This document shows positions 32,281-59,561 of a stretch of DNA of 64,000 bases, in pieces. The first letter of the stretch is position 1; every line of letters begins with the position of its first letter. The notes beneath the pieces were generated by a model. That model was not told where the DNA came from and did no database searches. It saw nothing but the letters and a program-made list of their open reading frames with translations. Origin of the DNA: Nitrospiria bacterium (GTDB taxonomy: Bacteria; Nitrospirota; Nitrospiria; DASWJH01); contig DASWJH010000048.1 of NCBI GenBank assembly GCA_036397255.1, positions 4,172 through 68,171 of the forward strand, read 5' to 3'. The position numbers and the translations under genes are program-made.

Positions 32281-32295
32281 CTTTTTTCAAAAACT

Positions 32296-32961: not shown

Positions 32962-33033
32962 CTGAAAAAATTTAATTTCCGTTCATCATGGAATTTACTG
33001 ACCTCATTATAAAGGAGCATATTTTCTGATTTC

Positions 33034-35591: not shown

Positions 35592-35650
35592 TTTTCACCC
35601 ATTATAAAACATCGAAAAAGTTCAAACCTTTGGATAAGGTTCTTCCAAAT

Positions 35651-37432: not shown

Positions 37433-37435
37433 TTC

Positions 37436-38605: not shown

Positions 38606-38611
38606 TTAGAT

Positions 38612-39346: not shown

Positions 39347-39383
39347 TTAGTTTTTTCTCCTGTTTGAGTATTTCAAATAACTC

Positions 39384-40373: not shown

Positions 40374-40395
40374 TAGGTCACTCGCCCTCCTTGAC

Positions 40396-42099
40396 TCAAA
40401 TGTTCTTTTGATCTTTTGATCTTTTGATGACAGGTTTCCGAAAGTATGCGTTGACCCCTTCAATCTCCTGATGGCGCCGAGTTTCATCCCATCCCAAGGC
40501 CGACGCCATAACCTTCGAGCATTCGGTCAAAACTTCTTCGCCGGGATGTGTTGCGGTTCCCAAACCCGTTCGACGGAAAATAACATCTTCTAATTTCATG
40601 GCCATCTCTTCTTGGATACAATAAACAACCTCTGCTTTGATCACATCAGACTGACCCAGGGTAACGGCTAAATCTTTTAATTCTTCCACATAATGGAGAA
40701 CATCTTTGTAACGGGTTCCATGGCGATGAAGTAAGGCGATTAATATATTTTCTGGTAAATCCAACGAGAGTTCTTGTTTTGCCCTTGATAAGAGATTTTC
40801 AAAACTCTCAAAATCACCTCCATCAATAGGAGTTTCCGAAGTATAAGATCTTCCGACCTTCTTATTGAGTTTTTTTGAGGCTAAATCAATGGCCCGCTCT
40901 GCAACCCCTCTTGCCGTTGTATAACGAACGCCGACAAGGGTAATCAAACCGTCCAAACCGTTTTGTTTTTTATGGTCAACAAGCATCGAGCGCTTTCCAT
41001 AACTTAAATTGATAGACTGCGGCGTGTTTGCCCCGAATAAAACAAGGCCCGTGTAAAATTGGCTAATATCCTCTTCCGTTAGCTCTGCAGTGGGATAGGC
41101 CTCGTTTATTTCATCCAGAAAACACCGCAATTCCTCATAACCAATCGTTAATTGGTCAGGATGGCCTTCATAGACCACATGCCATACTCCAACCAGGGTT
41201 ACATTGCGCCAAGGTACTAGGAAAAGATGCCGGGCTCCCCGGCTCAGGAGGGCGTCAGGGTCTTGGGTTCGGCACGAAACCGCCAAACCACAGTCATTGA
41301 TCAACCTTCGATTGACGACAAAACTGGTATCTCTTGAAAACGATGGGCTTGGGTTTAATTCTAATTTAACGGAATGAAAAAGAAATCGATTTGCCCAAGG
41401 ACCCGCGGCATTAATAACCAGCCGGCCCCGAACATCAAATGTTTCACCACCAAGACGATCCTGTACTTTGACTCCGTAAAATCGACGGTCTTTCTGTAAA
41501 AAGTCAATCGCCTCGACATAATTTGCGGCCCGGACACCCGCTTCACAAGCGGATTTCAGGAACGACAGCGCTAGTCGAGCGGGGTCTCGCATTTGGCCAT
41601 CATAAAATATGGCCGCCCCGGTCAGCCCTTTTTGTTTAACCCCCGGAAACCTTTCAATGCATTCTTCCCGGGAAATAAAATAAGCAGCTGGAATATGTTG
41701 TTTGGGATCTGATATTCCTCTATTTCTATCAGCGGTTATCCCTTCATAAAGCCAAAAAGCAGCCTGAAGAAGGGCTTTCCCCTTCAACCCTTTCCCATAG
41801 GTCGGAATGGCGATCGGAAGCGGATGAACCAAATGCGGTGCAATTCTCAGGAGGGCTCTTCTTTCATTGCTCGATTCACGAATGCGATATAAATCGCCAT
41901 GTTGAAGATACCGAATCCCACCATGAACCATCTTAAAACAATTTGCAGAGGTCGCATGTGCAAAATCACCCCGCTCTACCAAAGCAACCGAGAATCCCCG
42001 AAGAACGGCATCCCAGGCAGCACATATTCCAAAAATTCCTCCCCCGATGATAACGAGGTCAAACTCCTTTTCTGTAAGACTCTTTACATTTCTGATCAT
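40396..42099 (-). CDS. FAD-dependent oxidoreductase of the glycerol-3-phosphate dehydrogenase (GlpA/GlpD) family
   Basis: FDLVIIGGGIFGICAAWDA is the FAD-binding GxGxxG. ATSANCFKMVHGGIRYLQHGD matches the GlpD signature (the S-x-KLIHGGLRYL type). Confidence 0.65.
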   Translation of the reverse strand: MIRNVKSLTEKEFDLVIIGGGIFGICAAWDAVLRGFSVALVERGDFAHATSANCFKMVHGGIRYLQHGDLYRIRESSNERRALLRIAPHLVHPLPIAIPTYGKGLKGKALLQAAFWLYEGITADRNRGISDPKQHIPAAYFISREECIERFPGVKQKGLTGAAIFYDGQMRDPARLALSFLKSACEAGVRAANYVEAIDFLQKDRRFYGVKVQDRLGGETFDVRGRLVINAAGPWANRFLFHSVKLELNPSPSFSRDTSFVVNRRLINDCGLAVSCRTQDPDALLSRGARHLFLVPWRNVTLVGVWHVVYEGHPDQLTIGYEELRCFLDEINEAYPTAELTEEDISQFYTGLVLFGANTPQSINLSYGKRSMLVDHKKQNGLDGLITLVGVRYTTARGVAERAIDLASKKLNKKVGRSYTSETPIDGGDFESFENLLSRAKQELSLDLPENILIALLHRHGTRYKDVLHYVEELKDLAVTLGQSDVIKAEVVYCIQEEMAMKLEDVIFRRTGLGTATHPGEEVLTECSKVMASALGWDETRRHQEIEGVNAYFRKPVIKRSKDQKNI

Positions 42100-42117
42100 T
42101 ATCTTTTGTACATTAAA

Positions 42118-43011
42118 TTAATCATTTTTTTTGATATTTGCCTTTTCTTGATATTCTTTTAATAGGTCTCTCATTGGCCCGAATTTAAATTCCTTCAATA
42201 ATTTTTTTAACCGGGGCTCCGTTTTCTCTAAAAAAATATAATGTCGAAACCGTGACAACATACTCCCCTCTAATCTTGGCTGGTTTGTATCAATTTCCCA
42301 CGGATGTAAATAAACAATGATGGGTTGATTTTCTTTTTCAACAATACTATTTAACCCCCAACGAAGGAACCAATAAGGAAATAATCTCAAATAACCTCCC
42401 CCAGCAATGGGAATATTGTTATTTAGAATTTTAATGGTCGACAGAGGGATCTCTAAAATATCGGACCCATTCTTTCCATTAATTCTATATGGAAACCTTT
42501 TCGCATTGGGAATTCCATAACGGTCCCTTCGTATGGGAAAAATACTCGAATCGTATAAAAAACCCTCCTCCATCATGATATCCAATGCCCACAAGGAATT
42601 TTCAGTAATCGAGTAACTGGGTGCGCGATACCCAATGACAGGTTCTCCAATTATTTCTTCAAGAATTCCCTTAGACTTATTCAAGTCATCCCTAAATTCC
42701 TGTGGGTTTTGCTTGTATACCAACCGATGGGCATAACTATGGGAAGCAATTTCATGACCTTCTTTATGAATCCGTTTTACCAGCTCAGGAAATTTCTCAG
42801 CGATCCACCCCAAAATAAAGAAAGTTGCCTTCACATTATATTCATTCAAGATAGATAAAAGTTTATCGGTGTTGGCTTCAGCACGGCATTCAAAGTTACC
42901 CCAATCCTCAAATCTTATTTGAGATTCAAAGCCCGAAACATTAAAATAATCTTCTACATCAATGGTTAAAGCATTGATCATTGACTTTTTTAACCTCGTA
43001 GCTAGCGGCAA
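42118..43011 (-). CDS. polysaccharide deacetylase family protein (the exosortase-locus-associated subfamily)
   Basis: LTIDVEDYFNV...HSYAH. The IDVEDYF start is characteristic of the deacetylase subfamily found in PEP-CTERM loci. Confidence 0.6.
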   Translation of the reverse strand: MPLATRLKKSMINALTIDVEDYFNVSGFESQIRFEDWGNFECRAEANTDKLLSILNEYNVKATFFILGWIAEKFPELVKRIHKEGHEIASHSYAHRLVYKQNPQEFRDDLNKSKGILEEIIGEPVIGYRAPSYSITENSLWALDIMMEEGFLYDSSIFPIRRDRYGIPNAKRFPYRINGKNGSDILEIPLSTIKILNNNIPIAGGGYLRLFPYWFLRWGLNSIVEKENQPIIVYLHPWEIDTNQPRLEGSMLSRFRHYIFLEKTEPRLKKLLKEFKFGPMRDLLKEYQEKANIKKND

Positions 43012-44180
43012 TCCCTTGCCCTTCCCATCTCATCCAGTTTAACTCGATCAATAATATTTAAAATCCTTTCAGATGCCCTACCATCTCCATATGGAGAAAC
43101 CGATTTTGCCATTTTTTCATAGGCTGACGGATCATCTAACAAATTTTTGGTCTCTTTGTAAATTATTTCGGGGGAGGTTCCTACCAATTTTGCAGTACCT
43201 GCGTCAATTCCCTCTGGCCGCTCAGTCGTTTCACGGAGAACCAACACCGGCTTACCCAAGCTGGGAGCCTCCTCTTGGACACCACCCGAATCAGTTATAA
43301 TTAAATAAGATTTCTCCATTAATTTAATAAAGGTTTGATAGTCCAGGGGATCCAGGAGGTGAATATTATTTGCAGGGGATTTATTTAAGACCTGTTGCAC
43401 TGTTTTCCGAACTTTTGGATTAAAATGAACAGGGAAAACCACCTCCACTTCTTGAGCATATTCATTCGCAAGACTGCATACTGCAGACATTATTTTTTCC
43501 ATAGGTACACCGAAGCTTTCTCTTCGATGCATCGTTAAAAGAATGACTTTTTTAGAATCAAAATTAATTTTTTGCAGGATTTTTTCTTTAAAGGTATATT
43601 CTTTTTTAATACCCAATAAAAGGGCATCAATTACTGTATTTCCTGTTACGAAAATTTTTTCTTTATCTATTCCTTCTTTTTGTAATTGGTTGCTGGAATA
43701 AACCGTGGGGGCAAAATGAAGATCGGTTAATACTGACACCAATTGACGGTTAATTTCCTCCGGAAAGGGATTATATTTGTTATAGGTTCGCAGTCCTGCC
43801 TCTACGTGCCCAACAGGTATTTGTTTATAATAGGCCGCCAATGCGGCAACAAAAGCTGTGGTGGTGTCCCCTTGAACCAGCACCAATTCTGGAGATACCT
43901 CATTTAGGACATGTTCCATGCCTGTTAATGCTCTCGTTGTGATATCAAAAAGAGTCTGTCCTGAAGTCATTATTTCCAGGTTTTTATCAGGCCTAATCTC
44001 AAATAAATTCAGAACCTGGGAAAGCATTTCATCATGCTGACCGGTAGCCAGGATAAAAGAATCATACCGCTTAGGGTCACTCTTCATCCCCAGTATAACG
44101 GGGGCCAACTTTATGGCCTCTGGGCGGGTTCCAAAAATGATCATTACTTTTTTACGGTTCATATGAGACCAATCAACCAA
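43002..44180 (-). CDS. wecB: UDP-N-acetylglucosamine 2-epimerase (non-hydrolysing)
   Basis: MIIFGTRPEAIKLAPV...TDSGGVQEEAPSLGKPVLVLRETTERPEG is the canonical WecB/MnaA pattern. Confidence 0.85.
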   Translation of the reverse strand: MVDWSHMNRKKVMIIFGTRPEAIKLAPVILGMKSDPKRYDSFILATGQHDEMLSQVLNLFEIRPDKNLEIMTSGQTLFDITTRALTGMEHVLNEVSPELVLVQGDTTTAFVAALAAYYKQIPVGHVEAGLRTYNKYNPFPEEINRQLVSVLTDLHFAPTVYSSNQLQKEGIDKEKIFVTGNTVIDALLLGIKKEYTFKEKILQKINFDSKKVILLTMHRRESFGVPMEKIMSAVCSLANEYAQEVEVVFPVHFNPKVRKTVQQVLNKSPANNIHLLDPLDYQTFIKLMEKSYLIITDSGGVQEEAPSLGKPVLVLRETTERPEGIDAGTAKLVGTSPEIIYKETKNLLDDPSAYEKMAKSVSPYGDGRASERILNIIDRVKLDEMGRARDCR

Positions 44181-44213
44181 CTGAGGTGGGGTTCACAACT
44201 GGATGAAGAAGCT

Positions 44214-45569
44214 TTAAATTAGGGAAGGGGTATCAAAATCCTGATTCGACTCAATCCCCAATGCCTTCACAACGGTAGGAGCGATATTCACAATATTGAC
44301 CCGGTTAGAAAAAGCATTTTTTACACTGATATAAAAAGTGGAATCATTCTGGGTGTGCATTCCGGTCAAAAGGCTATTTCCTGTAAGCGATTGTTTACTA
44401 ATGGTACCCTTCAGGTCATATCCCCAATTTGGAAGGAGAAGAATATCGGGGGCGTCGTTTATAAAGGAACCATTAAAAAGCTCCTCCTTAAAGTAAACTG
44501 TTTTAACCACGGGAAAACCATCGACCTTTAATTCCATTAATCGGGATTTTAACTCCTCTCGAAGGGAGTCATATTCCTTACCCGGTGAAATGCAGCCGGA
44601 GGGATATTTGCCCCTTAGATGAATATAAATTCTTGCAGGATCCATGTTGAATGCTTTTGTACCTTTATCAATATCCAAATAGGATTGAGGGTTTTCTCTA
44701 GAAAATCTCAGGTAGTCGTTCGAAACCAACCAATGATTAAGGTAAACCTCCTTCTGAATTTTACAGAAGCCGTGATCAGACATGATCATAAAGACACCTT
44801 TTCCTTGGAACCACTCATAGACTTTTCCTATGAATCGATCAACCTTAGAATAAAAAGACTTAAAAAAACCGTGAAACTTATGTTGAGGATCTTCAATGGC
44901 CACCCAAAGGTAGTGATGCATCCGATCTGTTTCAGTAATAACCCCAATAAAAAGATCCCATTGCTCGTTGATGAGAAGGTCCCATAGGATTTTTTCCCGG
45001 GCAGCAAAAACCTTATCAAGATCCTCCACAAAAACCTCTAATGATTCCCGTGCTTTTGTTGCATCCACGTCAAGTTGATAATTCACTTTTTCAAGCTTTG
45101 GCAGTAAGGAAGAGGGATATGTTGCTTTTGCTAAGTCTATGGCGACAAAACCAGATATAAGGGCCCCATTCAGAGGTTTCGCGGGATAGGTAGAAGGGAC
45201 ATTAACAACAATAGAGCGTTTACCATGCTCTCCTATTATTTCCCAAATGGGTTTTGATTTTATGTTGTGGGAATTTGGGAAATACATATCATAACTATTT
45301 GCCTTTAAATCCATAAAGCCAAAAATTCCATGCTTTGCCGGGTTCACTCCCGTGAAAAAAGTGGTCCAAGCCACAGAGGAGACCTCTGGGATACTCGTAT
45401 CCATTTGAGAAAGTGTCCCCTCCTTCACAATTTGAGCCAAATGAGGCATTGTCCCATCCTGTATGAATTTTTGCATCAAAGTATATGGGGCTCCATCCAA
45501 TCCAAGGATAACAACTTTTTTCATCTTAGAAGTGGTAAGGCTTGATTTTAAATTTTGTAATAATGCCAT
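44214..45569 (-). CDS. alkaline-phosphatase-superfamily nucleotide pyrophosphatase/phosphodiesterase (NPP) family protein
   Basis: ILGLDGAPYTLM...TSIPEVSSVAWTTFFTGVNPAKHGIFGF resembles the NPP metal-site/Thr-nucleophile block. Confidence 0.5.
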   Translation of the reverse strand: MALLQNLKSSLTTSKMKKVVILGLDGAPYTLMQKFIQDGTMPHLAQIVKEGTLSQMDTSIPEVSSVAWTTFFTGVNPAKHGIFGFMDLKANSYDMYFPNSHNIKSKPIWEIIGEHGKRSIVVNVPSTYPAKPLNGALISGFVAIDLAKATYPSSLLPKLEKVNYQLDVDATKARESLEVFVEDLDKVFAAREKILWDLLINEQWDLFIGVITETDRMHHYLWVAIEDPQHKFHGFFKSFYSKVDRFIGKVYEWFQGKGVFMIMSDHGFCKIQKEVYLNHWLVSNDYLRFSRENPQSYLDIDKGTKAFNMDPARIYIHLRGKYPSGCISPGKEYDSLREELKSRLMELKVDGFPVVKTVYFKEELFNGSFINDAPDILLLPNWGYDLKGTISKQSLTGNSLLTGMHTQNDSTFYISVKNAFSNRVNIVNIAPTVVKALGIESNQDFDTPSLI

Positions 45570-45590
45570 TAGAACATTCCCTTCCTGTGG

Positions 45591-46754
45591 TTAATTTACT
45601 ACGGCAACCCCAATAATCTTTCCCTTGCTTTTTAAGGCCATTCGCCCTAAAGAGGTTTTGCCTCTTTCCACAATCAAGGGATCTTTAAATTTGAGCTTTA
45701 CTATGCAAACCTCACCAATTTCAGCCTGAGCCAAAGTCTCAAACTCACATTCGGTCCTTGAGGGGCCGCATTCCAAAACAAGGTTATTTGGAACTTCTTC
45801 AAGCAAGATCGCATGGGCAGTTGCCTCGCGCGTGACCTGTGCAACACTCTCAGGAAGGCAACAAACCTCCCCCCGGTGAACGGAGGGTAGATTCCGGTCT
45901 AACACTAAACCAATATTTTCCCCGGGCATGGCAGTTTTTTGATTTTTATCCACTCCCATGATGGAACGAATGGTCGCCTTTCCATTGGAAGGGACAAAAA
46001 CAACCTCTTGCCCCACATGAATCTCCCCACTTTCTACCTTCCCTGCAAGGATCCGTTCGCCTGCCTTATTCTCGTACACATCTTGAACCGGTAACCGCAA
46101 GGGGAGATTCAAGAATGAATTCTGAACCTCTAATCCTTCCATATGCTCAAAAAGGGTCCTCCCCGTGTACCAAGGCATCTGTGACGAACGGGCCACCACA
46201 TTATCTCCCTTATAAGCGGAAATGGGAATAAAATCCACTTTTGGGCCAAGGATTGGTGTCTTCTCCAATGCCTTGATCTTTGAAACCATCTCCTCAAAAA
46301 CCTCTTGCTGATACTCCACATGGTCCATTTTATTAACCACGACGATTAGGGAAGCAAGCCCAAGCCAATTTGCTAATCGTAAATGGTGGCCGGTCTGTTC
46401 CTCTAAACCCTCCTTAGCTGAAACAATCAAAATTCCCGCATCAGCATGAGAGGCACCACTGAGCATGTTCTTGAGGAGTTCTCTGTGCCCAGGAACGTCG
46501 ATACAGTCATAAATATTTTTTTTACCTTTGACCTGAGCGTGAATTACATCAATCGTCATCCCATCTCTTCGCTCTTCCTCAAAGCTATCCAATAAAAAAG
46601 CGTACTCAAATGGTTTCCCAACTGTCTTGCAATACTCCCTCACCTCTTCAGTGCGGTCTTCCATTACGCTTTTAGTGTCATATAGAAGACGGCCAATCAA
46701 GGTGGACTTGCCATGGTCCTTATGGCCCAACAGTGTAATGGTAAATCGTTTCAT
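45591..46754 (-). CDS. cysN: sulfate adenylyltransferase subunit 1-like GTPase (CysN/NodQ-type, EF-Tu fold, no fused APS kinase)
   Basis: G1 is GHKDHGKST, G3 is DVPGH, and G4 is NKMD. It is translationally abutted to the upstream CysD-like gene (stop and start adjacent). Confidence 0.7.
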   Translation of the reverse strand: MKRFTITLLGHKDHGKSTLIGRLLYDTKSVMEDRTEEVREYCKTVGKPFEYAFLLDSFEEERRDGMTIDVIHAQVKGKKNIYDCIDVPGHRELLKNMLSGASHADAGILIVSAKEGLEEQTGHHLRLANWLGLASLIVVVNKMDHVEYQQEVFEEMVSKIKALEKTPILGPKVDFIPISAYKGDNVVARSSQMPWYTGRTLFEHMEGLEVQNSFLNLPLRLPVQDVYENKAGERILAGKVESGEIHVGQEVVFVPSNGKATIRSIMGVDKNQKTAMPGENIGLVLDRNLPSVHRGEVCCLPESVAQVTREATAHAILLEEVPNNLVLECGPSRTECEFETLAQAEIGEVCIVKLKFKDPLIVERGKTSLGRMALKSKGKIIGVAVVN

Positions 46755-47546
46755 TTACATATACCCCAAAGCTCGAAGGCGCTGCATGACATTCTCCTGC
46801 TCCTTGTCCTGCATTCGACCCGCTCTCTCAGAAGTGGTTGTTGTTTTAAGCTCTTCAATAATTTCATCAATAGTGGAGGCATGGGAATCAATCCCCACGG
46901 TGCATTGTGTACAGCCCAGACTACGGTAGCGGTTACCATTTCGGGAAAAGTAGAGAGGATTTACAGGTATCTTCTCCTGTTTAATATAAACCCACATATC
47001 CAATTCGGTCCAATGCAGTAAAGGATGAATCCTGATATGTGAAGCGTCCTCCGTCTGAGAAATAAAATCCCAAATTTCCGGAGCCTGGTTTTTGTAATCC
47101 CACCTAAACTCCTTATCTCTTGGAGAAAAATACCTCTCTTTCCCCCGAATTCCATGTTCATCTCGCCGGATTGAAACGAAAAGACCATCAAAGTTCCGCT
47201 CCCCCATCAAACCCTTAAGCGCATCGGTTTTATTTGAGCCACAGCACCTGACGCCTGACAAGTCATCCTTGATCACACTTTTGGGTACCAGCAGATCTAG
47301 GCCCCATTCCTTTGCTAGCCTCTCCCTGAATTCATAGGTTTCTGGAAAATCGATTCCATTATCAATATGAATCAAAGGAAAAGGAACACGACCGAAAAAC
47401 GCCTTTCTCGCCAAAGCAACCAAAACGGTTGAATCCTTTCCTGTTGACCAAAGGGCTGCTAGATTCTCAAACCGCGCATGGGCTTCTCGAATCGTAAAGA
47501 TACTCTTTGCTTCCAACTCCTTTAATTCATTTACCTCACTCATCAT
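46755..47546 (-). CDS. cysD: sulfate adenylyltransferase subunit 2 (PAPS-reductase-fold ATP pyrophosphatase, CysD)
   Basis: ALWSTGKDSTVLVALA is the PP-loop. Its size and its pairing with the CysN-like GTPase support the call. SD GGAGAC lies upstream of the MM start. Confidence 0.7.
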   Translation of the reverse strand: MMSEVNELKELEAKSIFTIREAHARFENLAALWSTGKDSTVLVALARKAFFGRVPFPLIHIDNGIDFPETYEFRERLAKEWGLDLLVPKSVIKDDLSGVRCCGSNKTDALKGLMGERNFDGLFVSIRRDEHGIRGKERYFSPRDKEFRWDYKNQAPEIWDFISQTEDASHIRIHPLLHWTELDMWVYIKQEKIPVNPLYFSRNGNRYRSLGCTQCTVGIDSHASTIDEIIEELKTTTTSERAGRMQDKEQENVMQRLRALGYM

Positions 47547-47589
47547 GGTCTCCTTTTAACTTAACTTATAATATTTTAAACAGGCTTCC

Positions 47590-47660
47590 GCTATACCGGT
47601 GCAAAACCGGTCCTACTTAAAAACAACTTTCAGGAATAAGGGTTTCAAAATAAAACCCCT
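47590..47660 (-). promoter_or_regulatory. structured intergenic leader between the NusG-like gene and cysD, containing two short hairpins
   Basis: On the minus strand there are gggttt-tattttg-aaaccc and accggt-tttgc-accggt (6-bp stems). The first is followed by a T-rich stretch. This may be a partial terminator/attenuator or an RNA element. Confidence 0.25.
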
Positions 47661-47678
47661 CACGATCCTCTGAAGACT

Positions 47679-48203
47679 TTAACTACCCACCACGTGCCCA
47701 AGATCTACTGTAACACGGGCGTGGAACGAGATCGTACGCAATAAGAGCATTGCCCTTTGGTGGTCAGGTAATTCTTGTTGAAAAACAGCTTCAAACCCTT
47801 GTAAGGGCCCTTGTTGAATACGAACTACTTGCCCTTCCACAAAAGAGGAATTTTTAATAATGACGTACCCGTCTTTACATCGGATCTTGATTGATCCAAT
47901 AATTTCTTCCTCAACTTTCACTGGAAAAGATCCAAAAGCAACAAGGCTTTTCACCCCATGGGCAAAAGCCACCATTCTGTAGTGTTGGCTCAGATTAAAC
48001 CTTGCAAAAAAATAACCCGGAAAAAGAGGACGCGTAACCGTTTTCCTGTTTCTCCGAATAATCCTTTCCTGTTGAAATCGGGGACAAAATGTCTCTATTC
48101 CAAGCCTTTGTAAATTCAATTCTGCAAAATTTTCTCGGTTGGGTTTAGTATGTACTGCATACCAATAAACTTCACTATCACCCATGCTTTTTTGATTCCC
48201 CAC
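47679..48203 (-). CDS. NusG-paralog transcription antiterminator (UpxY/RfaH-like)
   Basis: YWYAVHTKPNRENFAELNLQRLGIETFCPRF is the NGN domain, and EGQVVRIQQGPLQG is the C-terminal KOW. At 174 aa it lacks features of the full housekeeping NusG. Confidence 0.7.
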   Translation of the reverse strand: MGNQKSMGDSEVYWYAVHTKPNRENFAELNLQRLGIETFCPRFQQERIIRRNRKTVTRPLFPGYFFARFNLSQHYRMVAFAHGVKSLVAFGSFPVKVEEEIIGSIKIRCKDGYVIIKNSSFVEGQVVRIQQGPLQGFEAVFQQELPDHQRAMLLLRTISFHARVTVDLGHVVGS

Positions 48204-48252
48204 TTTCTTTAATTAGGAAAAAAATCCTCCCCTTTAAATAATAAGGGTTTCC

Positions 48253-49584
48253 CTATAATCGAACAATATGAGGTTGCCGGAACCCTTTTAGAGCGTTTCT
48301 TGTGTCGATAATTAATTGACTCTCCTTAACCACCATTTCATAATCAAAAGATGAATGATTAGTAACGATGATGACACAATCATAATTCTTAATGGGATTT
48401 TTTGAAATGTTTACGGATGAAAGGATTTGATTTACCACGTTTAAACTGGGAACGTAAGGGTCATGGTAACTAAGATTTGCCCCTAGCTTAAATAACAAGG
48501 CTAAAATATCGAGAGCAGGAGATTCTCTAATATCATCTATATCCTTTTTATAAGCTACACCTAGGACCAATAACTTTGAATTCCTGACGCTCTTCGAACG
48601 ATCATTTAAACTTTCGGTTATTTTATTCACCACATGTTCCGGCATCGAGCCATTAATTTTTCCGGCGAGTTCAATAAACCTTGCCTCAAACCCATTTTGC
48701 TTTGCTTTCCAGGAAAGATAGAAGGGATCAACCGGAATGCAATGGCCCCCAATGCCCGGCCCCGGGTGAAAGGGCATGAACCCAAATGGTTTGGTAGCTG
48801 CGGCATCAATTACCTCCCAAACATCAATCCCCAGCTTATTGCTCAATAAGGCTACCTCATTTACCAAAGCAATATTGACGCTTCTAAATGTGTTTTCTAA
48901 TAACTTTACCATTTCCGCAACCATTGTAGAGGATACGGGGATTACTTTTTTAACGATACTTTGATAAAGTTGTGTTGCTAATTTTGTGCAAAAGGGAGTT
49001 ACTCCTCCCACAATCTTGGGTGTATTCTGTATTTGGAATTCTTGGTTTCCCGGGTCAACTCGCTCAGGGGAGAAGGCCAGAAAAAAATCTCTTCCAACTT
49101 TTTTTCCTTTTTCGCTTAAAATCGGAAGCACAATTTCCTCCGTGGTTCCAGGATAGGTGGTACTCTCTAAAATGATCAACTGTCCCTTCCCCAACCATTT
49201 CTTTATTTCTTTTGCCGCAGAAACCACATGTGAAAGGTCAGGATCTTTGGTTTTAACCAAAGGGGTTGGAACACAAATAATGACAGCATCCAACCTCTCA
49301 ATAACCTCAAAGGATGAGGTTGGGTTTATCCTTTTCATTTCAATAAAGGGGTTCAATTCTTTATCCGATACGTCCTGAATGTAAGATTTTCCTTTTTCCA
49401 GCAATTTCACTTTTTGGGTATCAATATCAATTCCGGTAACCGTAAAACCCGATTTCGCGAATTCAAGGAGCAAAGGGAGACCAACATAACCCAAACCGAC
49501 AATTCCGATCTTTGCTTCTTTATTTTGGATTAATCCCTCAAATTCCAAATCCTCAATTTTGGCAGCTTTTAATCTCTTGCTCAT
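48253..49584 (-). CDS. nucleotide-sugar dehydrogenase (UDP-glucose/GDP-mannose dehydrogenase family; likely UDP-GlcNAc or UDP-ManNAc dehydrogenase)
   Basis: KIGIVGLGYVGLPLL is the NAD-binding motif. The catalytic GGHCIPVDP is present (Cys). Confidence 0.8.
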   Translation of the reverse strand: MSKRLKAAKIEDLEFEGLIQNKEAKIGIVGLGYVGLPLLLEFAKSGFTVTGIDIDTQKVKLLEKGKSYIQDVSDKELNPFIEMKRINPTSSFEVIERLDAVIICVPTPLVKTKDPDLSHVVSAAKEIKKWLGKGQLIILESTTYPGTTEEIVLPILSEKGKKVGRDFFLAFSPERVDPGNQEFQIQNTPKIVGGVTPFCTKLATQLYQSIVKKVIPVSSTMVAEMVKLLENTFRSVNIALVNEVALLSNKLGIDVWEVIDAAATKPFGFMPFHPGPGIGGHCIPVDPFYLSWKAKQNGFEARFIELAGKINGSMPEHVVNKITESLNDRSKSVRNSKLLVLGVAYKKDIDDIRESPALDILALLFKLGANLSYHDPYVPSLNVVNQILSSVNISKNPIKNYDCVIIVTNHSSFDYEMVVKESQLIIDTRNALKGFRQPHIVRL

Positions 49585-49645
49585 TTAAATTCCTTTTCTT
49601 GAATTGGATCTACTCACTTTCCTTTTGAGGAACCTCAAAATCAAG

Positions 49646-51040
49646 CTATCGGGCCCCTGCTCCAATGAGAACAATTTTAATTGTTTGGAAAACCACAGTT
49701 AAATCAAAAAACAGAGACATATTTTTTACGTAGAAAAGATCGTATTGTAATTTTTCCAAAGCATCATCGACACTTGAACCATAACGAAATTTAATTTGAG
49801 CCCATCCAGTAATTCCAGGTTTCACAGTATGCCGAATTGAATAATAAGGTATCTTTTCTATTAGTTCCTCAATAAAATGGGCCCGCTCTGGCCTGGGGCC
49901 AACAAAACTCATTTCCCCTTTCAGCACATTGACCATTTGTGGTAATTCATCGATTCTGGTTTTTCTAAGAATCTTTCCCACCCGGGTTACTCGGGGATCA
50001 TCTTTTTTGGCCCAAACCGGCCCCGAAACAGATTCAGCATTTAATGTCATCGATCGGAATTTGAGTAATGTAAATATTCGCCCATTTTCCCCAACGCGCT
50101 CTTGTCTATAGAAAACCGGCCCCGGAGAACCTAATCGAATCAACAGTGGAACCAACAAGAAAATAGGAAAGGCCAAAAAAAGCCCTATGATAGAAAAAGT
50201 TATATCAAATAGGCGTTTTAAAATCTGCAAACTTCGTGGCTTTTTAAACCCTCCTGAAAAAATCAGCCAACTGGGTTTAAGTTCCTCCACGCTGATCTTT
50301 CCGCTGATCTGTTCATAAAAAGAAACCCCATCAATTATTTTAATCCCTTTTACTTTACACTGTAACAGCTCATTCAATGGCAAATTTCCACGACGGTCCG
50401 GCAATGCAACAATTACCTTTTTAATATTCCACTGCTCTATAATTTGGGTTAATTTTTTGTAATCCCCAATCACACCTGGATTAACTATCTTTTTCCCCAG
50501 TTTCTCTGGGTCGTTATCAATAAAGCCAACAATCTTATAACCTAGATCCCTTTTAGTGTGTAGAATTTCACCAACATTTTTAGCAAGACGGCCTGATCCC
50601 ACAATCAATACCGACTCTTTAAACTTCCCTATATCCATAAATTTAAAATAGAGTACACGAAGGGTAAAAAAAATCAGAAAAAGGAAATTAGCTGAAACGA
50701 ATAGGCTCACCCTCCCAATTTCAGCAGAAGGAAAAATATAATAAATAACGACTAAAATAACACACCCTACGCCCAAGGATTGCATCAATCGCAATATCAA
50801 TTTTCTTCCTTTTATTTCTTCATCCAATACATATAAATCGTTGTAATAAAGGCAGAGCTGAAATATTACGGAAATTAAAAGTGCCTTCCAAAAGAAATGG
50901 TCAAAAGAAACCACCGAATCCGATAAAAAGAATTTCCTAAAAGAAATTCCTAGTAATACCACCCCTAGAATAAAAAGGTTTTCAATTATAAAAAAAATCA
51001 AATTTTTTAAGATAACAAGTCGCCCAAATATGTTCAGCAT
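49646..51040 (-). CDS. polyprenyl-phosphate sugar phosphotransferase (WbaP/EpsB-type initiating sugar transferase)
   Basis: It has N-terminal TM helices, a central Rossmann-like domain, and a C-terminal KRLFDITFSIIGL...DELPQMVNVLKGEMSFVGPRPE, the bacterial sugar-transferase signature. Confidence 0.85.
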   Translation of the reverse strand: MLNIFGRLVILKNLIFFIIENLFILGVVLLGISFRKFFLSDSVVSFDHFFWKALLISVIFQLCLYYNDLYVLDEEIKGRKLILRLMQSLGVGCVILVVIYYIFPSAEIGRVSLFVSANFLFLIFFTLRVLYFKFMDIGKFKESVLIVGSGRLAKNVGEILHTKRDLGYKIVGFIDNDPEKLGKKIVNPGVIGDYKKLTQIIEQWNIKKVIVALPDRRGNLPLNELLQCKVKGIKIIDGVSFYEQISGKISVEELKPSWLIFSGGFKKPRSLQILKRLFDITFSIIGLFLAFPIFLLVPLLIRLGSPGPVFYRQERVGENGRIFTLLKFRSMTLNAESVSGPVWAKKDDPRVTRVGKILRKTRIDELPQMVNVLKGEMSFVGPRPERAHFIEELIEKIPYYSIRHTVKPGITGWAQIKFRYGSSVDDALEKLQYDLFYVKNMSLFFDLTVVFQTIKIVLIGAGAR

Positions 51041-51222
51041 TCTAACCCCGAATTCTATTTCAATAAGAATAAAACGTTCACTAGTATCTCTTAAGATTTA
51101 AAATTTAAAAAAAAATTTTATGTAAATCCATTTTAAACCATATACATCAATCATTCCCGCCTGGTTTATGGCCGGATGAAAGGTATACAAAACCAGATAA
51201 AATCTCGACCTTCAAGATTTGC
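51041..51222 (-). promoter_or_regulatory. AT-rich 182-nt intergenic spacer inside the cluster (candidate internal promoter/processing region)
   Basis: It is the largest non-coding gap within the co-directional gene run. It has A/T tracts (aaaatttaaaaaaaaatttta). No defined -35/-10 or -24/-12 element is confidently readable. Confidence 0.2.
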
Positions 51223-52224
51223 TCAATAGGGATACCCATAATATCTTGTGAACCCGGATTCCATTCCGTTCAAAACAATTGCCCACACTTTCTCGGCAGG
51301 AAGACCAGCGAAAGCTTTTAGGACTAAGTCTCTTGGTGTCATTCCTGCCCTAACAACAAATAGGATTCCATTCACCAGTTCCGAAAAAATATTCATGTCG
51401 GCTAATGGTAAAACCGGAGGTGAATCGATAATGATGTATTCAAATTCCATTTCGGCCTGGGAAAGAGCCTCAGCCATTTTTGGTAAACTTAAAAGTCTGG
51501 TTGAATTTTTCTCATTGCTTCCAGCCGGTAACATAAAAAGTTTTTCGGTCAAAAAGGGATAGATACATTCCTCCAATGAATTATTTCTCGCAAGTATATC
51601 CACCAAACCTTTACCACATGGGGATTTTAAATATCGATGAAGATCCGGTTTTTTTAAATCTCCTTCAATAATAAGTGTCTTTTTATTAAAATCCTTGGCC
51701 ATGGTAACTCCCAGGTTTACAGACGTAGTGGTCTTTCCTTCCCCCTTTACAGAACTCGATATTGCAATGCGCTTTTGTTTTCCTTCCCCATTCATATGTT
51801 TGAATCGGGAATATAAAACCCGATACTGTTCACTGGCCATGGACTGGGGTTCCAAAAGTGCGATCGGATGCTCATCCATTTTCCTTTTCCTCTCCCCTTT
51901 TACAATTTCCCTTCTAACATTTAGGTCTTTCCTGCTATTTGAAAGCGTTAAAGCCCGGTGATCTATTTTTAAATATTTAAAATCCTCATCTTTGACCCCG
52001 GCAAAACGGTATGGGCTAAAATGAGCTCCATTGTTTTTCTTATTCATTACCAACTTATAAGCAGTAAGAATTTTTTCAAGGTTCATTTTTTCTTCTGTTC
52101 CGAGAAAACGACCATTTTTAAGACCAATAAATTCCTTAACAGCCAAATCAAAGGCTTTTTGTATTTCTTCCCTATTTGACTCAGGGTTAATTTTCAAAAT
52201 TTTAAAACTTTCTTCTTTTTTCAT
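51223..52224 (-). CDS. BY-kinase (bacterial tyrosine autokinase) cytoplasmic ATPase subunit
   Basis: Walker A is ISSSVKGEGKTTTSVNLG. The C-terminal tyrosine cluster is RYYGYPY. It is coupled by ATGA to the upstream chain-length determinant. Confidence 0.75.
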   Translation of the reverse strand: MKKEESFKILKINPESNREEIQKAFDLAVKEFIGLKNGRFLGTEEKMNLEKILTAYKLVMNKKNNGAHFSPYRFAGVKDEDFKYLKIDHRALTLSNSRKDLNVRREIVKGERKRKMDEHPIALLEPQSMASEQYRVLYSRFKHMNGEGKQKRIAISSSVKGEGKTTTSVNLGVTMAKDFNKKTLIIEGDLKKPDLHRYLKSPCGKGLVDILARNNSLEECIYPFLTEKLFMLPAGSNEKNSTRLLSLPKMAEALSQAEMEFEYIIIDSPPVLPLADMNIFSELVNGILFVVRAGMTPRDLVLKAFAGLPAEKVWAIVLNGMESGFTRYYGYPY

Positions 52225-53735
52225 TCTTTAAATAATTTTGGGTTCAAAAATTTTTTCTGACCTTCTTTTTTTTCCTTGATAGGACGGAATTTTATTTTTT
52301 TATATTTAGAAAATTTTGGAATGGATACAACCAAAGGACCCTTCATGACACCCTCTAAATCCTCAGGTTGTCTGAAACAGGGATTCAACATCTCAATCAA
52401 TAAAGCAAGCCCGAAACCTGAGGCTGCTCCAGCAAAACTTCCAGCAAGCAGGAGCTTTCGAAGATTTGGTTTATATGGTTTTTCTGGTAAATTGGCGGGG
52501 TCAATGATGCGAAAACGCTCCCCTTGTTGCCGTTTTTCGAGATTTTCCGAAAGCCTCGCATTTATACTTTTCCCCAATAGGTTCTGATAATTCCCTTGGG
52601 ACATATCGTAATCTCTTTGGAGTTTTTTAAGTTCAACTTCTAACATTGGCGTACGAGCGACTCTTGTTTCATAGCCTCTAATCTTCTCTACCAAAAGTTT
52701 CCCGGTCACTTCCAAGTCTTTAATCTCCCTTAAGATTTTCTGGTGTTGATCAAGGAGACGTTTGTAATTTTCATTTTCCCGGAGAAAAGGGATATCACCT
52801 GTAGGGTTTGATTTTGTGGTGGATTGGGAAAGCTGAGCCTCCATTTCCCGTATTTGTTTTTTTAAAAGGATGACATCGGGATAATTTTCTTTATATACAA
52901 TCCGAAGATTTTTGAGTTTTTCCCTTAATTGTTGAAGCGGCATATTTGGTTCCTCAATAGAAGACGCTGAATTTGTAGTGAAATTGAGGGCTTCTTGTTT
53001 CAATTTCAAAATTTGATTCTCTAGATCCTGGGCTCGATCTTCCTTTGAATTTATTAAATCTCTGTTGGCTTGAAAATTAATTTGAAGCCGGTCTAAGGTT
53101 CTTAGGTTTGAGTCTATTTCACTCGGCAATCCCCCTCTATTTTTCTCTTTAAACCTTCTGATATTCTCATCAAGGCTGTCCATTTGTTTTTTGGCTTCCG
53201 CCAATTCTTTCTGAAGGAAATTGGTTGTAACCTGGGCCTGTTGTTCCCGGACTTTAAGGTTTTCTTCAATGAAGCGTGAAGCGATTCGATTGGTTACGTT
53301 CATGACTTTTTCAGGGTCTTTTCCAACAAAACTGATCGAAAATGCCTGTTTTCCTACAACATCCAATTGAATATTTTTTTGCAGCTTTTCAACAACCGAT
53401 TCCTTTCCTAACTCAGCAAACTCTTTAGGAAAAAGGTCCAATTCGTCCCGCAGTTTAATTAAATTGGTCCGGCTCATTACCTGCTGGCTAATTGTTTTCA
53501 ACCGTTCCGAAATTGGAGTAGTTACAGTTGATTTAACGTAATCCTGGGGTATTATTTGGGGTTCGACTAAAATCATTGTGGTGGACCGATACGCTTTAGG
53601 GAGCCAATAACTTAGCCCTAGGCTAACCCCCAGGGCTACAATGATTGGAAAAAAGATCCAATATCTACGTCTAAAAAAAACATCAATATATTGGAAGATC
53701 ATCTTTTGAATTTCAGGTGAAAATTGGTTATTCAT
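52221..53735 (-). CDS. polysaccharide chain-length determinant (PCP/Wzz-like, transmembrane activator of the BY-kinase)
   Basis: There is an N-terminal TM helix (YWIFFPIIVALGVSLGLSYWL), a long periplasmic coiled-coil region (KQMDSLDENIRRFKEKN...), and a C-terminal TM helix (LLAGSFAGAASGFGLALLIE). Confidence 0.7.
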   Translation of the reverse strand: MNNQFSPEIQKMIFQYIDVFFRRRYWIFFPIIVALGVSLGLSYWLPKAYRSTTMILVEPQIIPQDYVKSTVTTPISERLKTISQQVMSRTNLIKLRDELDLFPKEFAELGKESVVEKLQKNIQLDVVGKQAFSISFVGKDPEKVMNVTNRIASRFIEENLKVREQQAQVTTNFLQKELAEAKKQMDSLDENIRRFKEKNRGGLPSEIDSNLRTLDRLQINFQANRDLINSKEDRAQDLENQILKLKQEALNFTTNSASSIEEPNMPLQQLREKLKNLRIVYKENYPDVILLKKQIREMEAQLSQSTTKSNPTGDIPFLRENENYKRLLDQHQKILREIKDLEVTGKLLVEKIRGYETRVARTPMLEVELKKLQRDYDMSQGNYQNLLGKSINARLSENLEKRQQGERFRIIDPANLPEKPYKPNLRKLLLAGSFAGAASGFGLALLIEMLNPCFRQPEDLEGVMKGPLVVSIPKFSKYKKIKFRPIKEKKEGQKKFLNPKLFKE

Positions 53736-53752
53736 TCATAAGGTCCTTTATG

Positions 53753-54949
53753 TTAGAAAGACGGAAAAATCGCTAAAAGTTGCATTTGAACCCGGTTTCT
53801 ATAAAGATCTTCACCCAGATTTCCACCAGATACCTGCCGGTTATGGGTATAAGAAACATTTCCAGATAACCATTTGTTAAATAAATAGTTCAATGTTGCA
53901 TTCAATCTAAAAAATTGAATGTCAACCTCCCCCCCCTTTATGGTTTTATTCGTACCATAACTTCCCCCCATTTGACCGGTAAGGAACTGTGTAAAACTCT
54001 TTGAAAGTGATACCCTTACATTTTGATGTTGAACCAAGCGATTGACCAAACCGGTTGACCTAATATCCTGGTTATATGAAAAATTAATTTTAGTATTTCT
54101 TTCCAACAAAAAACCTTTATCGATATTGCCTGAAAAAAAAGGCCTATATTCCTCGGTCCCAGCTTCGGCCAAATGAAGAACTCCCCCCTCAACCTGAAAA
54201 CTAAAAGTGGAGGAAAAAATATGCCTCCATCCCAGAGTGGCCAAATAAGTATCGGAGCTGTCCTCCCCATCAAACGAAACATTTTGATAGCGGGCAGCAA
54301 GGGTCATTGTATCATTTCGAAATAATTGGTAGGCATAGGTAGACTTAAGCGATTGCCCAAAACGATCCACAAGAGTTGGATCGGAATATTCTGTAAGGGT
54401 ATTTGTATATTCTAAAGACGCCTGAGCGCGCCGAGAAAGTTGATATCGGTATTCTGCTCCAAAATGATTCCGAAAGGCCGTGTTTCTCCCTACCTGGGTT
54501 CCATCATCTTCACCTGTAACCACACCGGGGTCTAACTCATAATCAGGTAAATCAGGCGTTATGACAAATCTTTCGGTAAAGGTTAGTTCTCCCCTCTTGT
54601 TAAAACGGTTAAGGAGCCGATCAAGGTTTAAGTCCAACCCCCCATTCTGGTTATAACGATTCAGTTGGGAGTGGTCTGCGTAAACATCCAAACTTCCTCT
54701 ATAGGTTAAAGCCGTGCTCACAAGAGGCCACTGGTAACTGACCCTTAAAGTTGGCGATATAGATGTAATATAATCAGATTCACGGTCAGAACCGCTGGAA
54801 AATATATTGTCATCAAAGGTTTCTGTGAACGACATAGCAGGTTCCACTATCAATTCACCTTTTACAATCTCGCAAGTTCCCATAATTAAAAAACCCCAGA
54901 TAAAAAGAAATAACCCAATAAAAAAAATAAAGTTTCTCATAAAGGCCAA
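53753..54949 (-). CDS. outer-membrane beta-barrel protein (exosortase/EPS-locus-associated OMP)
   Basis: It has a signal peptide and alternating amphipathic beta-strand pattern throughout, and ends ...QLLAIFPSF, a C-terminal Phe OMP signature. Confidence 0.55.
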   Translation of the reverse strand: MAFMRNFIFFIGLFLFIWGFLIMGTCEIVKGELIVEPAMSFTETFDDNIFSSGSDRESDYITSISPTLRVSYQWPLVSTALTYRGSLDVYADHSQLNRYNQNGGLDLNLDRLLNRFNKRGELTFTERFVITPDLPDYELDPGVVTGEDDGTQVGRNTAFRNHFGAEYRYQLSRRAQASLEYTNTLTEYSDPTLVDRFGQSLKSTYAYQLFRNDTMTLAARYQNVSFDGEDSSDTYLATLGWRHIFSSTFSFQVEGGVLHLAEAGTEEYRPFFSGNIDKGFLLERNTKINFSYNQDIRSTGLVNRLVQHQNVRVSLSKSFTQFLTGQMGGSYGTNKTIKGGEVDIQFFRLNATLNYLFNKWLSGNVSYTHNRQVSGGNLGEDLYRNRVQMQLLAIFPSF

Positions 54950-54980
54950 GGCATGGATTATTGGGAAATTTCTAACAAAC

Positions 54981-56039
54981 TCATGGCACCAGAATTGTGT
55001 CTCCCGGTTTTAGAAAAATGTTTTCCATTTCACCACCTGACACAATATCATCGTATTTTACTTTGATCTTGGTTTCTGGGTACTCTTTATAACCCTTTCG
55101 TAAAATAATTATTTTATTTCGGGACGCAAATTGGGTAAAACCTCCTGCTAGAGCTAAGGCTTGTATTACTGTTACATTGCTTTTCAACTGATACTTTCCA
55201 GGATTAACTACCTCCCCCATCAAATAAACCACATAACTATTGATTTCTTGGACAATTACAGTAACCACGGGATTTTCCATATATTCTTTTAAAAGGCCGG
55301 CAATTCTTTCCCGAAGTTGATTGGGTTTTAAACCCGCTGCCGAAACATCCCCAATTAAGGGAAAAGAGATTATCCCATCGGGCCTAACCTTTACTGTTCT
55401 GGAGAGAACGTCATTTTTCCAAACCATTATTTCGAGAACATCTTCAGACCCGATTAAATAATCTTTACCGGATTCGGCTAATGCGTGTTCCCTTTGAAAA
55501 TCATTTTCAGTGGAAAGGGCAAGGGAAACTAATTTATTGCCATCATTCCCGGAAGGGAAACCCTCATCAGTAGCAGAAAACCTGGAATCAAAAATTTCTA
55601 CAATGATTTTTCCTTCTTCACCTCTCACCCGAGTCGTTGCAGAAGGGTTTAGGTTGATTTCAAACTGAACGCCCTCCTTTGGTTTTCGGGTTTCCCGTGG
55701 ATAAATATCCAACACGGCCCCACGGTTAACTACCATCGGTTTGATGTGTTTACCCAGCGTAACCCCTGGAATTTCCAGTATCAGTTGGTGAGATTCTGGA
55801 ACTTTGATGGCTCTATAAAAAAGAGGCCCCTCGCCTTGAATCACCACCTCGGTCACTTCTGGCAAATCATTGATCATAAGATTTTTTATTTGAAAAAATT
55901 CTTGGTGTTGACTGTTTTTTGGACTTGAAGTCCCCATTACACAACCGGAGAATAGGAGATTGAATAAAACACAAGCAATGATCATCTCGTAACGGTTGAA
56001 ACAGGACCACATCTCTTTCCAAAAATTTTCCTTTTTCAC
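54981..56039 (-). CDS. polysaccharide export lipoprotein (Wza-like, Poly_export plus SLBB domains)
   Basis: It has a lipoprotein signal with lipobox LLFSGC. GSEDVLEIMVWKNDVLS...VRPDGIISFPLIGDVSAAGL is the polysaccharide-export motif, and it has a C-terminal SLBB. Confidence 0.7.
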   Translation of the reverse strand: MKKENFWKEMWSCFNRYEMIIACVLFNLLFSGCVMGTSSPKNSQHQEFFQIKNLMINDLPEVTEVVIQGEGPLFYRAIKVPESHQLILEIPGVTLGKHIKPMVVNRGAVLDIYPRETRKPKEGVQFEINLNPSATTRVRGEEGKIIVEIFDSRFSATDEGFPSGNDGNKLVSLALSTENDFQREHALAESGKDYLIGSEDVLEIMVWKNDVLSRTVKVRPDGIISFPLIGDVSAAGLKPNQLRERIAGLLKEYMENPVVTVIVQEINSYVVYLMGEVVNPGKYQLKSNVTVIQALALAGGFTQFASRNKIIILRKGYKEYPETKIKVKYDDIVSGGEMENIFLKPGDTILVP

Positions 56040-56105
56040 CTAAAACTCCTTCTTTATCCGATATTCCCCCTAAAACCGACTGAATTTTATTGCCAAAATT
56101 TTCTT

Positions 56106-56624: not shown

Positions 56625-56770
56625 AGCCCTTCCATCAGCTCAAGTAAAAACAATCCCAATTTTCAGAAAAACTTCAACTAGTACCTAATACAATTTTTCG
56701 TTTTTTCATTACGGGAAGAATATCGAAAAAATTTTTACCGGGTTTCCCCATTCGAAATCTTAATTTATCC

Positions 56771-59550: not shown

Positions 59551-59561
59551 AGAAAGGCCAA

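Follow-up and report, generated by a model that had tools for sequence, protein, structure and literature searches.

A hairpin-plus-ops element beside the gene of an RfaH-like NusG paralog in an exopolysaccharide cluster of a Nitrospiria bacterium

Introduction

Specialised paralogs of the transcription factor NusG have long operons as their targets (PMC7593976), and reviews of the NusG family treat the recruitment modes of those paralogs that are encoded inside their target operons as unknown. Here we describe such a gene in a 64,000-nt stretch of contig DASWJH010000048.1 from a Nitrospiria bacterium (the whole stretch is called the window below, and coordinates without a locus handle are window positions), together with a conserved element in the spacer between this gene and cysD, which consists of a hairpin and, directly 3′ of it, a 12-mer resembling the signal of Escherichia coli known as ops (for operon polarity suppressor). 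The product of the gene, an RfaH-like specialised NusG paralog, is referred to as NusG-SP.

The system closest to this locus is RfaH and its ops signal in E. coli. RfaH, a two-domain NusG paralog as NusG-SP is, is the best match of the latter in both sequence and fold, and the two signals are near-identical (GGCGGTAGCCTG in relatives of the window locus, GGCGGTAGCGTG in E. coli as quoted in PMC11880322), stand on the non-template (coding) strand before a long polysaccharide array, and share the recruitment bases G4, G5, A7 and G8, to which C3 contributes, as well as the pause bases T11 and G12. In E. coli the signal forms part of the JUMPstart sequence and serves the lipopolysaccharide core, O-antigen, capsule, hemolysin and F tra operons. 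RfaH stands alone and acts in trans, whereas NusG-SP is encoded inside its presumed target cluster beside its signal, of which the 64 kb hold one copy, and the E. coli ops is promoter-proximal within a leader, whereas the window signal is found mid-cluster, ∼10 kb from the cluster's 5′ end. T6 is the flipped-out base in E. coli, whereas position 6 is free in the elements of NusG-SP homologs and the residues of the corresponding pocket (H20, Q24 and R73) are replaced. Unlike the E. coli ops, the NusG-SP element includes a covarying hairpin 2–5 nt upstream as an integral part. Finally, ∼95% of RfaH genes are proteobacterial (PMC7593976), whereas the hosts of NusG-SP and its element belong to the Nitrospirota, Verrucomicrobiota and Acidobacteriota.

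One case has been described before in which an RfaH-like factor is encoded in cis and has an ops-like site next to its gene: PrfaH of the enterobacterial IncX plasmids, which is co-transcribed with its long target operon virB (PMC11880322). The PrfaH site is upstream of the gene, in the leader, as it is in many NusG-SP relatives, whereas the window site is downstream, so that the gene of the factor is not itself under the factor's control. The target of PrfaH is a plasmid type IV secretion operon and that of NusG-SP would be a chromosomal exopolysaccharide cluster, and PrfaH is a more distant structural match to NusG-SP (9ik0, rank 14). UpxY of the Bacteroides capsule loci is likewise a NusG paralog encoded in its presumed target locus, with an action that depends on sequence near its gene, but it is the first gene, with a long 5′ untranslated region and a paired inhibitor, UpxZ, whereas NusG-SP is the tenth open reading frame (ORF) and is followed by cysD. 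We know of no ops-like DNA signal described for UpxY. LoaP, found with polyketide and polysaccharide clusters of Firmicutes and Actinobacteria, shares with NusG-SP the association with a cluster and a small hairpin of the transcribed region in its recognition element. LoaP is reported to recognise an RNA hairpin in a 5′ leader, whereas the dominant conserved feature of the NusG-SP element is the ops-type 12-mer.

The literature that we searched holds no earlier description of a hairpin-plus-ops element. We consider it probable that NusG-SP is an RfaH-like factor, encoded in cis, which has a pause-and-load site of its own and licenses transcription of the distal ∼45.6 kb of the cluster.

A hairpin and an ops-like 12-mer downstream of the NusG-SP gene

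A preliminary description of the locus had placed a 132-nt spacer between the factor gene and cysD, which is correct (Table 1), and had proposed a search for ops-like motifs, which did indeed find a hairpin and an ops-like 12-mer in this spacer and beside homologous genes in Nitrospirota, Verrucomicrobiota and Acidobacteriota. The window element reads ACCGGTTTTGCACCGGT-AT-AGCGGAAGCCTG (47611..47581) and is located 67–98 nt past the NusG-SP stop codon. Its 12-mer is transcribed and, as an ops signal does, stands on the non-template strand; it matches at 10/12 positions, retaining G2, C3, G4, G5, A7, G8, C9, T11 and G12 and differing at positions 1 and 6, both of which are A. The consensus in the relatives is a covarying hairpin, 2–5 nt, and then GGCGG(T/C)AGC(C/T)TG, which fits the consensus of the ops of E. 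coli RfaH (GGCGGTAGnnTG), and three relatives (L001, L013 and L020) carry GGCGGTAGCCTG, which is 11/12 identical to the E. coli ops and also fits its consensus.

The conserved bases are those with known roles in E. coli, where G4C, G5A, A7T and G8C abolish RfaH recruitment, C3G and T6A cut it ∼3-fold, T11 and G12 set the pause, and C3:G8 makes a hairpin in the non-template strand that presents G5 and T6 (PMC5995543). Among 49 instances collected from relatives with the search pattern GCGGNAGC, the pattern-fixed bases C3, G4, G5, A7 and G8 are the ones whose substitution reduces or abolishes RfaH recruitment in E. coli. Bases that the pattern does not set are conserved as well (G1 in 40/49, T11 in 37/49, G12 in 31/49) and fit a consensus pause, and position 6 is variable, with T in 27 and C in 21 of the instances; taken over the family it is free (T/C/G/A).

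The hairpin of the element (hairpin 2 in Table 1) is just as much a part of it. In 31/49 relatives a stem of 5 bp or more ends 1–6 nt before the 12-mer, compared with a fraction of 0.24 at random positions (p 5e-9), and the stems differ by clade (CCGG, GAGG/CCTC, AAGGTGC, ATGCGC, CCCGC, GAAGCAT and others). In an alignment of 77 model-aligned hits, 12 cells changed on both sides of the stem where 3.0 were expected, and none of 500 shuffles reached as high a count; the covariation signal is nevertheless modest because most rows share CCGG.

To judge the significance of the window element we used a profile hidden Markov model (nhmmer) built from the elements of 40 relatives and a covariance model, R1, built from 25 relatives, with the window excluded from both. 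On both strands of the 64 kb the profile finds one significant match, 47611..47577 on the minus strand (E 7e-4, next best 1.6), and R1 finds in the spacer, on the coding strand, its single match below E 0.68. A further copy is absent from the 5′ end of the cluster; the next best R1 match has E 0.68. The match in the window owes its significance to the flanks and the conserved position and not to the bare 12-mer. No Rfam family matches the element at gathering score in a search of the whole window, and permissive searches, which went to E ≤ 10 for 47400..48400 and to E ≤ 5 for seven element-carrying related loci, returned nothing relevant; JUMPstart, which we expected to be in Rfam, has no match in this region of the window or in the seven loci.

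The element is tightly linked to NusG-SP genes

The element accompanies the gene in other genomes. R1 was run over both strands of 84 related loci (887 kb), and its 44 matches with E ≤ 1 are without exception on the strand of the NusG-SP gene and within a few hundred nt of it, about 33 of them downstream and 8 upstream, with L010 having one on each side. The reverse test, a metagenome search with an exact 22-nt pattern, gave 120 contigs, 66 of which carry a homolog, and in 66/66 the element and the gene share their strand (upstream in 31, downstream in 35). The 54 contigs that have the pattern and no homolog are richer in G+C (0.62 versus 0.54), and most of their matches are inside ORFs or on short contigs, so these look like chance matches for the most part. 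Some loci carry the element twice: it flanks the NusG-SP gene on both sides in L010 (5918..5956 and 6560..6598) and L195 (8422..8460 and 9064..9102), and two tandem copies follow the gene in L075 (6629..6712). That the element is conserved, which strand it is on and how tightly it is linked to the gene are direct observations, as is the family resemblance of the protein described below.

The protein search returned 25 homologs and the genome scan more than 580, the best 80 of which come from Nitrospirota (the closest, at 45–55% identity), Verrucomicrobiota, Acidobacteriota and several further phyla. Among the nearest of them the gene order is Poly_export, EpsL, Wzz/GNVR, priming transferase, in some cases a deacetylase or dehydrogenase, NusG-SP, and then variable biosynthesis genes, so the internal placement of the gene, presented in the preliminary description as unusual for a specialised NusG paralog, is the common arrangement among its closest relatives and normal for NusG-SP homologs. 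In L007–L009 the NusG-SP gene instead opens the operon, with genes for a PrsK/PrsR-type sensor and regulator running divergently from it, and the element stands between it and the biosynthesis genes, a layout which implies that gene and element can share one transcription unit; in more distant Nitrospira the gene precedes Poly_export. A sizeable non-coding gap adjoins the NusG-SP gene in every relative's context that we examined. The two loci most similar to the window are L091, with a 99% identical protein and an identical spacer, and L090 (80% identical), where the order is priming transferase, NusG-SP, spacer and cysD, with no dehydrogenase in between, and where the 12-mer is canonical (GGCGGTAGCCCG) and hairpin 2 weaker.

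NusG-SP is a specialised NusG paralog with RfaH as its closest family

The sequence of NusG-SP identifies it as a specialised NusG paralog, as first described, and not as the housekeeping NusG, with RfaH as its closest family. It scores 46.6 bits with the NCBIfam NusG model (TIGR00922, cut-off 135.7), its gene has no secE/rplK neighbourhood, and its best relative of solved structure in a search of PDB sequences is E. coli RfaH (E 7e-16), with E. coli NusG at ∼3e-3. The RfaH model TIGR01955 matches residues 14–168 over model positions 1–155 of 159 with 112 bits (cut-off 144.5), and the second RfaH equivalog, NF006534, gives 92.3 (cut-off 124). UpxY (NF033644, 76.4 bits, cut-off 100) and LoaP (NF033641, 52.6 bits, cut-off 125) follow, and NusG-SP reaches the cut-off of none of these models.

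The description of the protein as an NGN plus a KOW domain in 174 aa stands as to the domains but probably not as to the length. Pfam calls the NGN domain at residues 13–104 (58.9 bits, cut-off 22.2); it does not call a KOW domain in NusG-SP, but the KOW region is present, given that the RfaH model is covered almost to its end, and a KOW-type motif (GQVVRIQQGPLQGFEAVF) is kept across the homologs. An NGN and a single KOW-type C-terminal domain in about 160–175 aa is the layout expected of RfaH. The true start is probably the ATG at 48185, giving 168 aa, because the homologs have 163 aa and begin with M-x-W-Y, and because a Shine-Dalgarno-like stretch (GGGG/GGAG) precedes this ATG in both the window and L090.

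An AlphaFold2 model of NusG-SP, built on a 23-sequence alignment, has the NGN domain at a predicted local distance difference test (pLDDT) score above 90, and its top fold match in Foldseek is autoinhibited RfaH bound to ops (5OND/8PFG). The C-terminal domain is modelled as mixed, with three short strands and a helix (147–164), and its pLDDT of ∼80 drops to 54 where this helix ends. In RfaH the autoinhibited C-terminal domain is alpha-helical and refolds to a beta-barrel; among the residues involved in that fold switch, I93, F130 and R138 are kept (I102, F141 and R150) and E48 is changed (R58). RfaH makes base-specific ops contacts through K10, H20, R23 and R73. Of these, K10 and R23 are retained as K20 and R33, and the residues that form the pocket for T6 are replaced (H20 by N30, Q24 by L34 and R73 by H82; Q, R or H is found at the last position among the homologs). 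The changes in this pocket match the variability of position 6 in the elements of the homologs.

A proposed pause-and-load mechanism

By analogy with E. coli, RNA polymerase would arrive from the export and priming genes, transcribe the factor gene and reach AGCGGAAGCCTG, where the flanking G2...T11-G12 would act as a consensus pause as they do at the E. coli ops. The non-template strand could then form the small C3:G8/G2:C9 hairpin and offer the loop G4-G5-N6-A7 to the NGN domain, while hairpin 2, leaving the RNA exit channel ∼13–16 nt behind the RNA 3′ end, probably prolongs the pause. The factor, translated from the same nascent transcript ∼100 nt behind, would bind and displace the housekeeping NusG, and polymerase loaded with it would resist pausing, Rho and intrinsic termination over the ∼45.6 kb (39 ORFs) that extend to the exosortase genes. 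Such a long, tightly packed array fits the kind of target that these factors serve (PMC7593976), and the layout of gene beside site fits the idea of ancestral recruitment in cis, as far as that idea (Belogurov 2009) is set out in the papers that cite it (PMC7819879 and PMC13015549).

Several points weigh against loading of NusG-SP at this site. The bare 12-mer, with two mismatches allowed, is not significant in the window (3 found, 1.3 expected), and the invariance of positions 2–5 and 7–9 among the 49 instances is partly a product of the search pattern. The window copy itself is atypical, with an A at position 1 that otherwise occurs in 1/49 relatives and an A at position 6 where 48/49 have T or C, and in E. 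coli T6A lowers RfaH recruitment ∼3-fold (PMC5995543). NusG-SP scores below the RfaH equivalog cut-offs. Nothing in the ops mechanism of E. coli corresponds to the conserved upstream hairpin, and it could therefore be RNA that is recognised. Some copies of the element are away from any NusG-SP gene; these orphans (L110 2820..2841 on the minus strand, L192 and L209, GCACCGGAACGGCGGTAGCCTGTGTTTTGA) are intergenic, near genes for a PIN-domain protein and a C5 DNA methylase, with no polysaccharide gene recognised beside them, and they look genuine and could be trans targets or remnants. The proposal assumes a promoter upstream and polymerases that read through from the dehydrogenase gene, and we infer pausing, binding with recognition of the DNA strand, loading in cis and antitermination from the comparison with known systems.

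The first alternative is that the element works as RNA, either as a LoaP-type leader hairpin bound by NusG-SP or as a processing or stability site that divides the mRNAs of the export and biosynthesis modules. LoaP is reported to bind an RNA hairpin, hairpin 2 covaries and, with polymerase on the 12-mer, would be in upstream duplex DNA or exiting RNA, outside the transcription bubble, and an RNA fold is also open to the 12-mer and its flanks, although the two pairs internal to the 12-mer never vary and so speak neither for nor against an RNA structure. Against this, the most conserved bases copy the E. coli ops DNA signal, including the pause-determining G2, T11 and G12 and the hairpin-forming C3:G8, and NusG-SP is closer to RfaH than to LoaP. 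We therefore regard an element acting as RNA as unlikely, noting that recognition of RNA and of ops DNA are not mutually exclusive.

The second alternative, put forward in the preliminary description, is a conditional terminator/antiterminator checkpoint, in which a hairpin and a T-rich tract stop most polymerases after the NusG-SP gene and regulated read-through leads to cysD. Two hairpins are indeed present in the spacer, but neither is directly followed by a run of T: hairpin 1 is locally stable (Table 1) and continues into AUUCCUGAAAGUUGUUUUU (AUUCCUGA), with T in 3/8 of the next nt and no adjacent U-tract, and the conserved hairpin 2 and 12-mer have no T-run after them. On its minus strand the spacer contains neither a terminator-like nor a sigma70-like site in scans of 44000..60000, whose totals over that region are at chance level. 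The fold of the whole spacer is no better than that of shuffles (z −1.03), and no alternative, mutually exclusive structure was found in it. The best case for a terminator comes from L090, in which a hairpin with a 10-bp GC-rich stem (ACCUCGGAGC/GCUCCGAGGU, 1321..1344 on the plus strand, z −5.7) and a T-rich tail occupies the place of hairpin 1, differs from it in sequence, is called terminator-like by the scan and stands between the NusG-SP gene and the canonical ops-like 12-mer. Several other relatives also have a hairpin right after the stop codon, but across the family such hairpins are a weak trend (mean z −0.43). Moreover, hairpin 1 is upstream of the proposed loading site, so a factor loaded there cannot override it. 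The checkpoint thus seems quite unlikely; hairpin 1 may be a weak or partial terminator or a stabiliser of the RNA 3′ end of the export-module transcript, and the conserved part of the spacer, judged by its sequence, is better read as a loading and pause signal than as a terminator.

The last alternative, an internal promoter or a duplex-DNA site for a transcription factor (e.g. the cluster's sigma54-type activator) that makes the distal genes a separate operon, is very improbable, for while in many relatives the element marks the border at which the conserved export/priming module gives way to the variable biosynthesis module, the cluster encodes a sigma54-dependent regulator, and TAGGACCGGTTTTGCA (47615..47600) fits the sigma54 consensus with two mismatches, this sequence lacks the invariant GG in register and such matches are as frequent as expected (20 found, 21 expected), the spacer has no sigma70-like site, the stems covary instead of staying conserved as a duplex binding site would, and the element is strictly strand-specific (44/44 and 66/66) and often precedes the NusG-SP gene or flanks it on either side (L010, L195).

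The locus and its relatives offer a testable candidate signal for cis-encoded NusG paralogs in environmentally dominant phyla, one that is almost the E. coli ops and differs from it in two informative respects, the free position 6 with its changed pocket residues and the conserved upstream hairpin. If loading of NusG-SP at this signal is real, the ops mechanism would extend far beyond the Proteobacteria, natural variants would be at hand for studying ops recognition, the full transcription of exopolysaccharide/exosortase clusters of 45–55 kb would be explained, and R1 would be a simple sequence marker with which to recognise, in metagenomes, the part of such a cluster that is regulated. More tentatively, and with doubts that we think outweigh the appeal of the idea, ops-type recruitment might be widespread and possibly ancestral for the cis-encoded NusG paralogs of Nitrospirota, Verrucomicrobiota and Acidobacteriota, and not a late proteobacterial speciality; at this locus it would be combined with an RNA pause hairpin and with a site beside the factor's own gene, where new protein would load in cis onto the very polymerase that made its transcript.

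The exopolysaccharide cluster around the NusG-SP gene

The gene is part of a 56-kb XrtA/PEP-CTERM exopolysaccharide cluster whose 48 ORFs run from 58204 to 1977 and share the minus strand (Table 1). As the preliminary description had it, the factor gene is internal to a polysaccharide cluster and adjoins sulfate-activation genes: the NDP-sugar dehydrogenase gene precedes it, and cysD and a cysN-like gene directly follow. Counting ORFs of 150 aa or more, it comes tenth in the co-directional array, ∼10 kb into the cluster, with ∼45.6 kb remaining downstream. The cluster is tightly packed, with few gaps above 60 nt, and downstream of the element only four exceed 59 nt.

Table 1. Positions of the element, the NusG-SP gene and other features of the window
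Feature	Position	Strand	Details
Hairpin-plus-ops element, model match	47575..47613	minus	R1 30.1 bits, E 1.4e-5
Hairpin 2	47595..47611	minus	ACCGGT-TTTGC-ACCGGT, 6-bp stem; immediately 5′ of the ops-like 12-mer
Ops-like 12-mer	47581..47592	minus	AGCGGAAGCCTG; predicted pause T11/G12 = 47582/47581
RfaH-like specialised NusG paralog (NusG-SP)	47679..48203	minus	174 aa from GTG 48203; stop TAA 47681..47679
Spacer, NusG-SP stop to cysD start	47547..47678	minus	132 nt
Hairpin 1	47638..47660	minus	(G)AGGGGUUU-loop-AAACCCUU; 18 nt past stop codon; −10.3 kcal/mol, z −3.19
Weak terminator-like hairpin	48230..48247	minus	CCCTTATTATTTAAAGGG + GAGGATTTTT; between dehydrogenase and NusG-SP gene; terminator scan
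Upstream cluster part	48253..58204	minus	Pfam and NCBIfam
Sigma54-dependent response-regulator gene	56771..58204	minus	heads the cluster
EpsB_2 priming glycosyltransferase (XrtA/PEP-CTERM)	49646..51040	minus	TIGR03013 506.7 bits, cut-off 393
NDP-sugar dehydrogenase	48253..49584	minus	directly upstream of NusG-SP gene
Putative target array	1977..47546	minus	39 co-directional ORFs of at least 150 aa, ∼45.6 kb; ORF map, gaps, Pfam
cysD (sulfate adenylyltransferase small subunit)	46755..47546	minus	NCBIfam NF003587 302.6 bits, cut-off 195; Pfam PAPS_reduct
cysN-like GTPase subunit	45591..46754	minus	Pfam GTP_EFTU and GTP_EFTU_D2; CysN model 266.8 bits, below cut-off 336
Sulfotransferase	28480..29631	minus	Pfam
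Sulfatase	16525..17922	minus	Pfam
Sulfatase	9901..11130	minus	Pfam
Wzx	13331..14860	minus	Pfam
Wzy_C-domain protein	11991..13334	minus	Pfam
Exosortase EpsH	4599..5483	minus	far 3′ end of array
EpsI/DUF3485	3930..4568	minus	far 3′ end of array

Ahead of the NusG-SP gene the cluster codes for a sigma54-type response regulator, a GGDEF-like ORF, Poly_export, an EpsL-like porin, Wzz/GNVR, AAA_31 (a ParA/MinD-type ATPase domain in Pfam), EpsB_2 and the NDP-sugar dehydrogenase. The terminator-like hairpin that follows the dehydrogenase gene has no comparative support, and the regional total of such sites is at chance level.

The first gene past the element is cysD, with a Shine-Dalgarno sequence (GGAG) at 47553..47550. 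The cysN-like gene lacks an APS (adenosine 5′-phosphosulfate)-kinase domain according to Pfam, and no such (cysC) domain is present among the cluster ORFs scanned in 1977..47546, so that the synthesis of 3′-phospho-APS (PAPS) must be completed elsewhere. Then follow, by Pfam, a phosphodiesterase, epimerases, many glycosyltransferases, the sulfotransferase, the two sulfatases, a carbamoyltransferase and an asparagine synthase-like amidotransferase. EpsH and EpsI are encoded ∼43 kb beyond the ops-like site, and the secretion/sorting enzyme consequently depends on very long-range transcription.

At the head of the cluster, a 413-nt divergent gap upstream of the response-regulator gene contains TGGTACAATCCTTGCA (58284..58299, minus strand), the only minus-strand site with one mismatch to the sigma54 consensus TGGCAC-N5-TTGCW and a candidate promoter for the whole array. 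A GGDEF-only ORF of 172 aa (56106..56624, minus strand) is found just before Poly_export, relatives have a small PilZ-domain ORF at the equivalent place (L001 2263..2655; L004 1855..2181), and a divergent response-regulator/GGDEF gene occupies 58618..59550; these genes hint at control of the cluster by cyclic di-GMP. Within the array, the minus-strand ORFs 39384..40487 and 40396..42099 overlap by 92 nt, and for the second of them, which encodes an epimerase, the true start codon is probably further in than the listed one.

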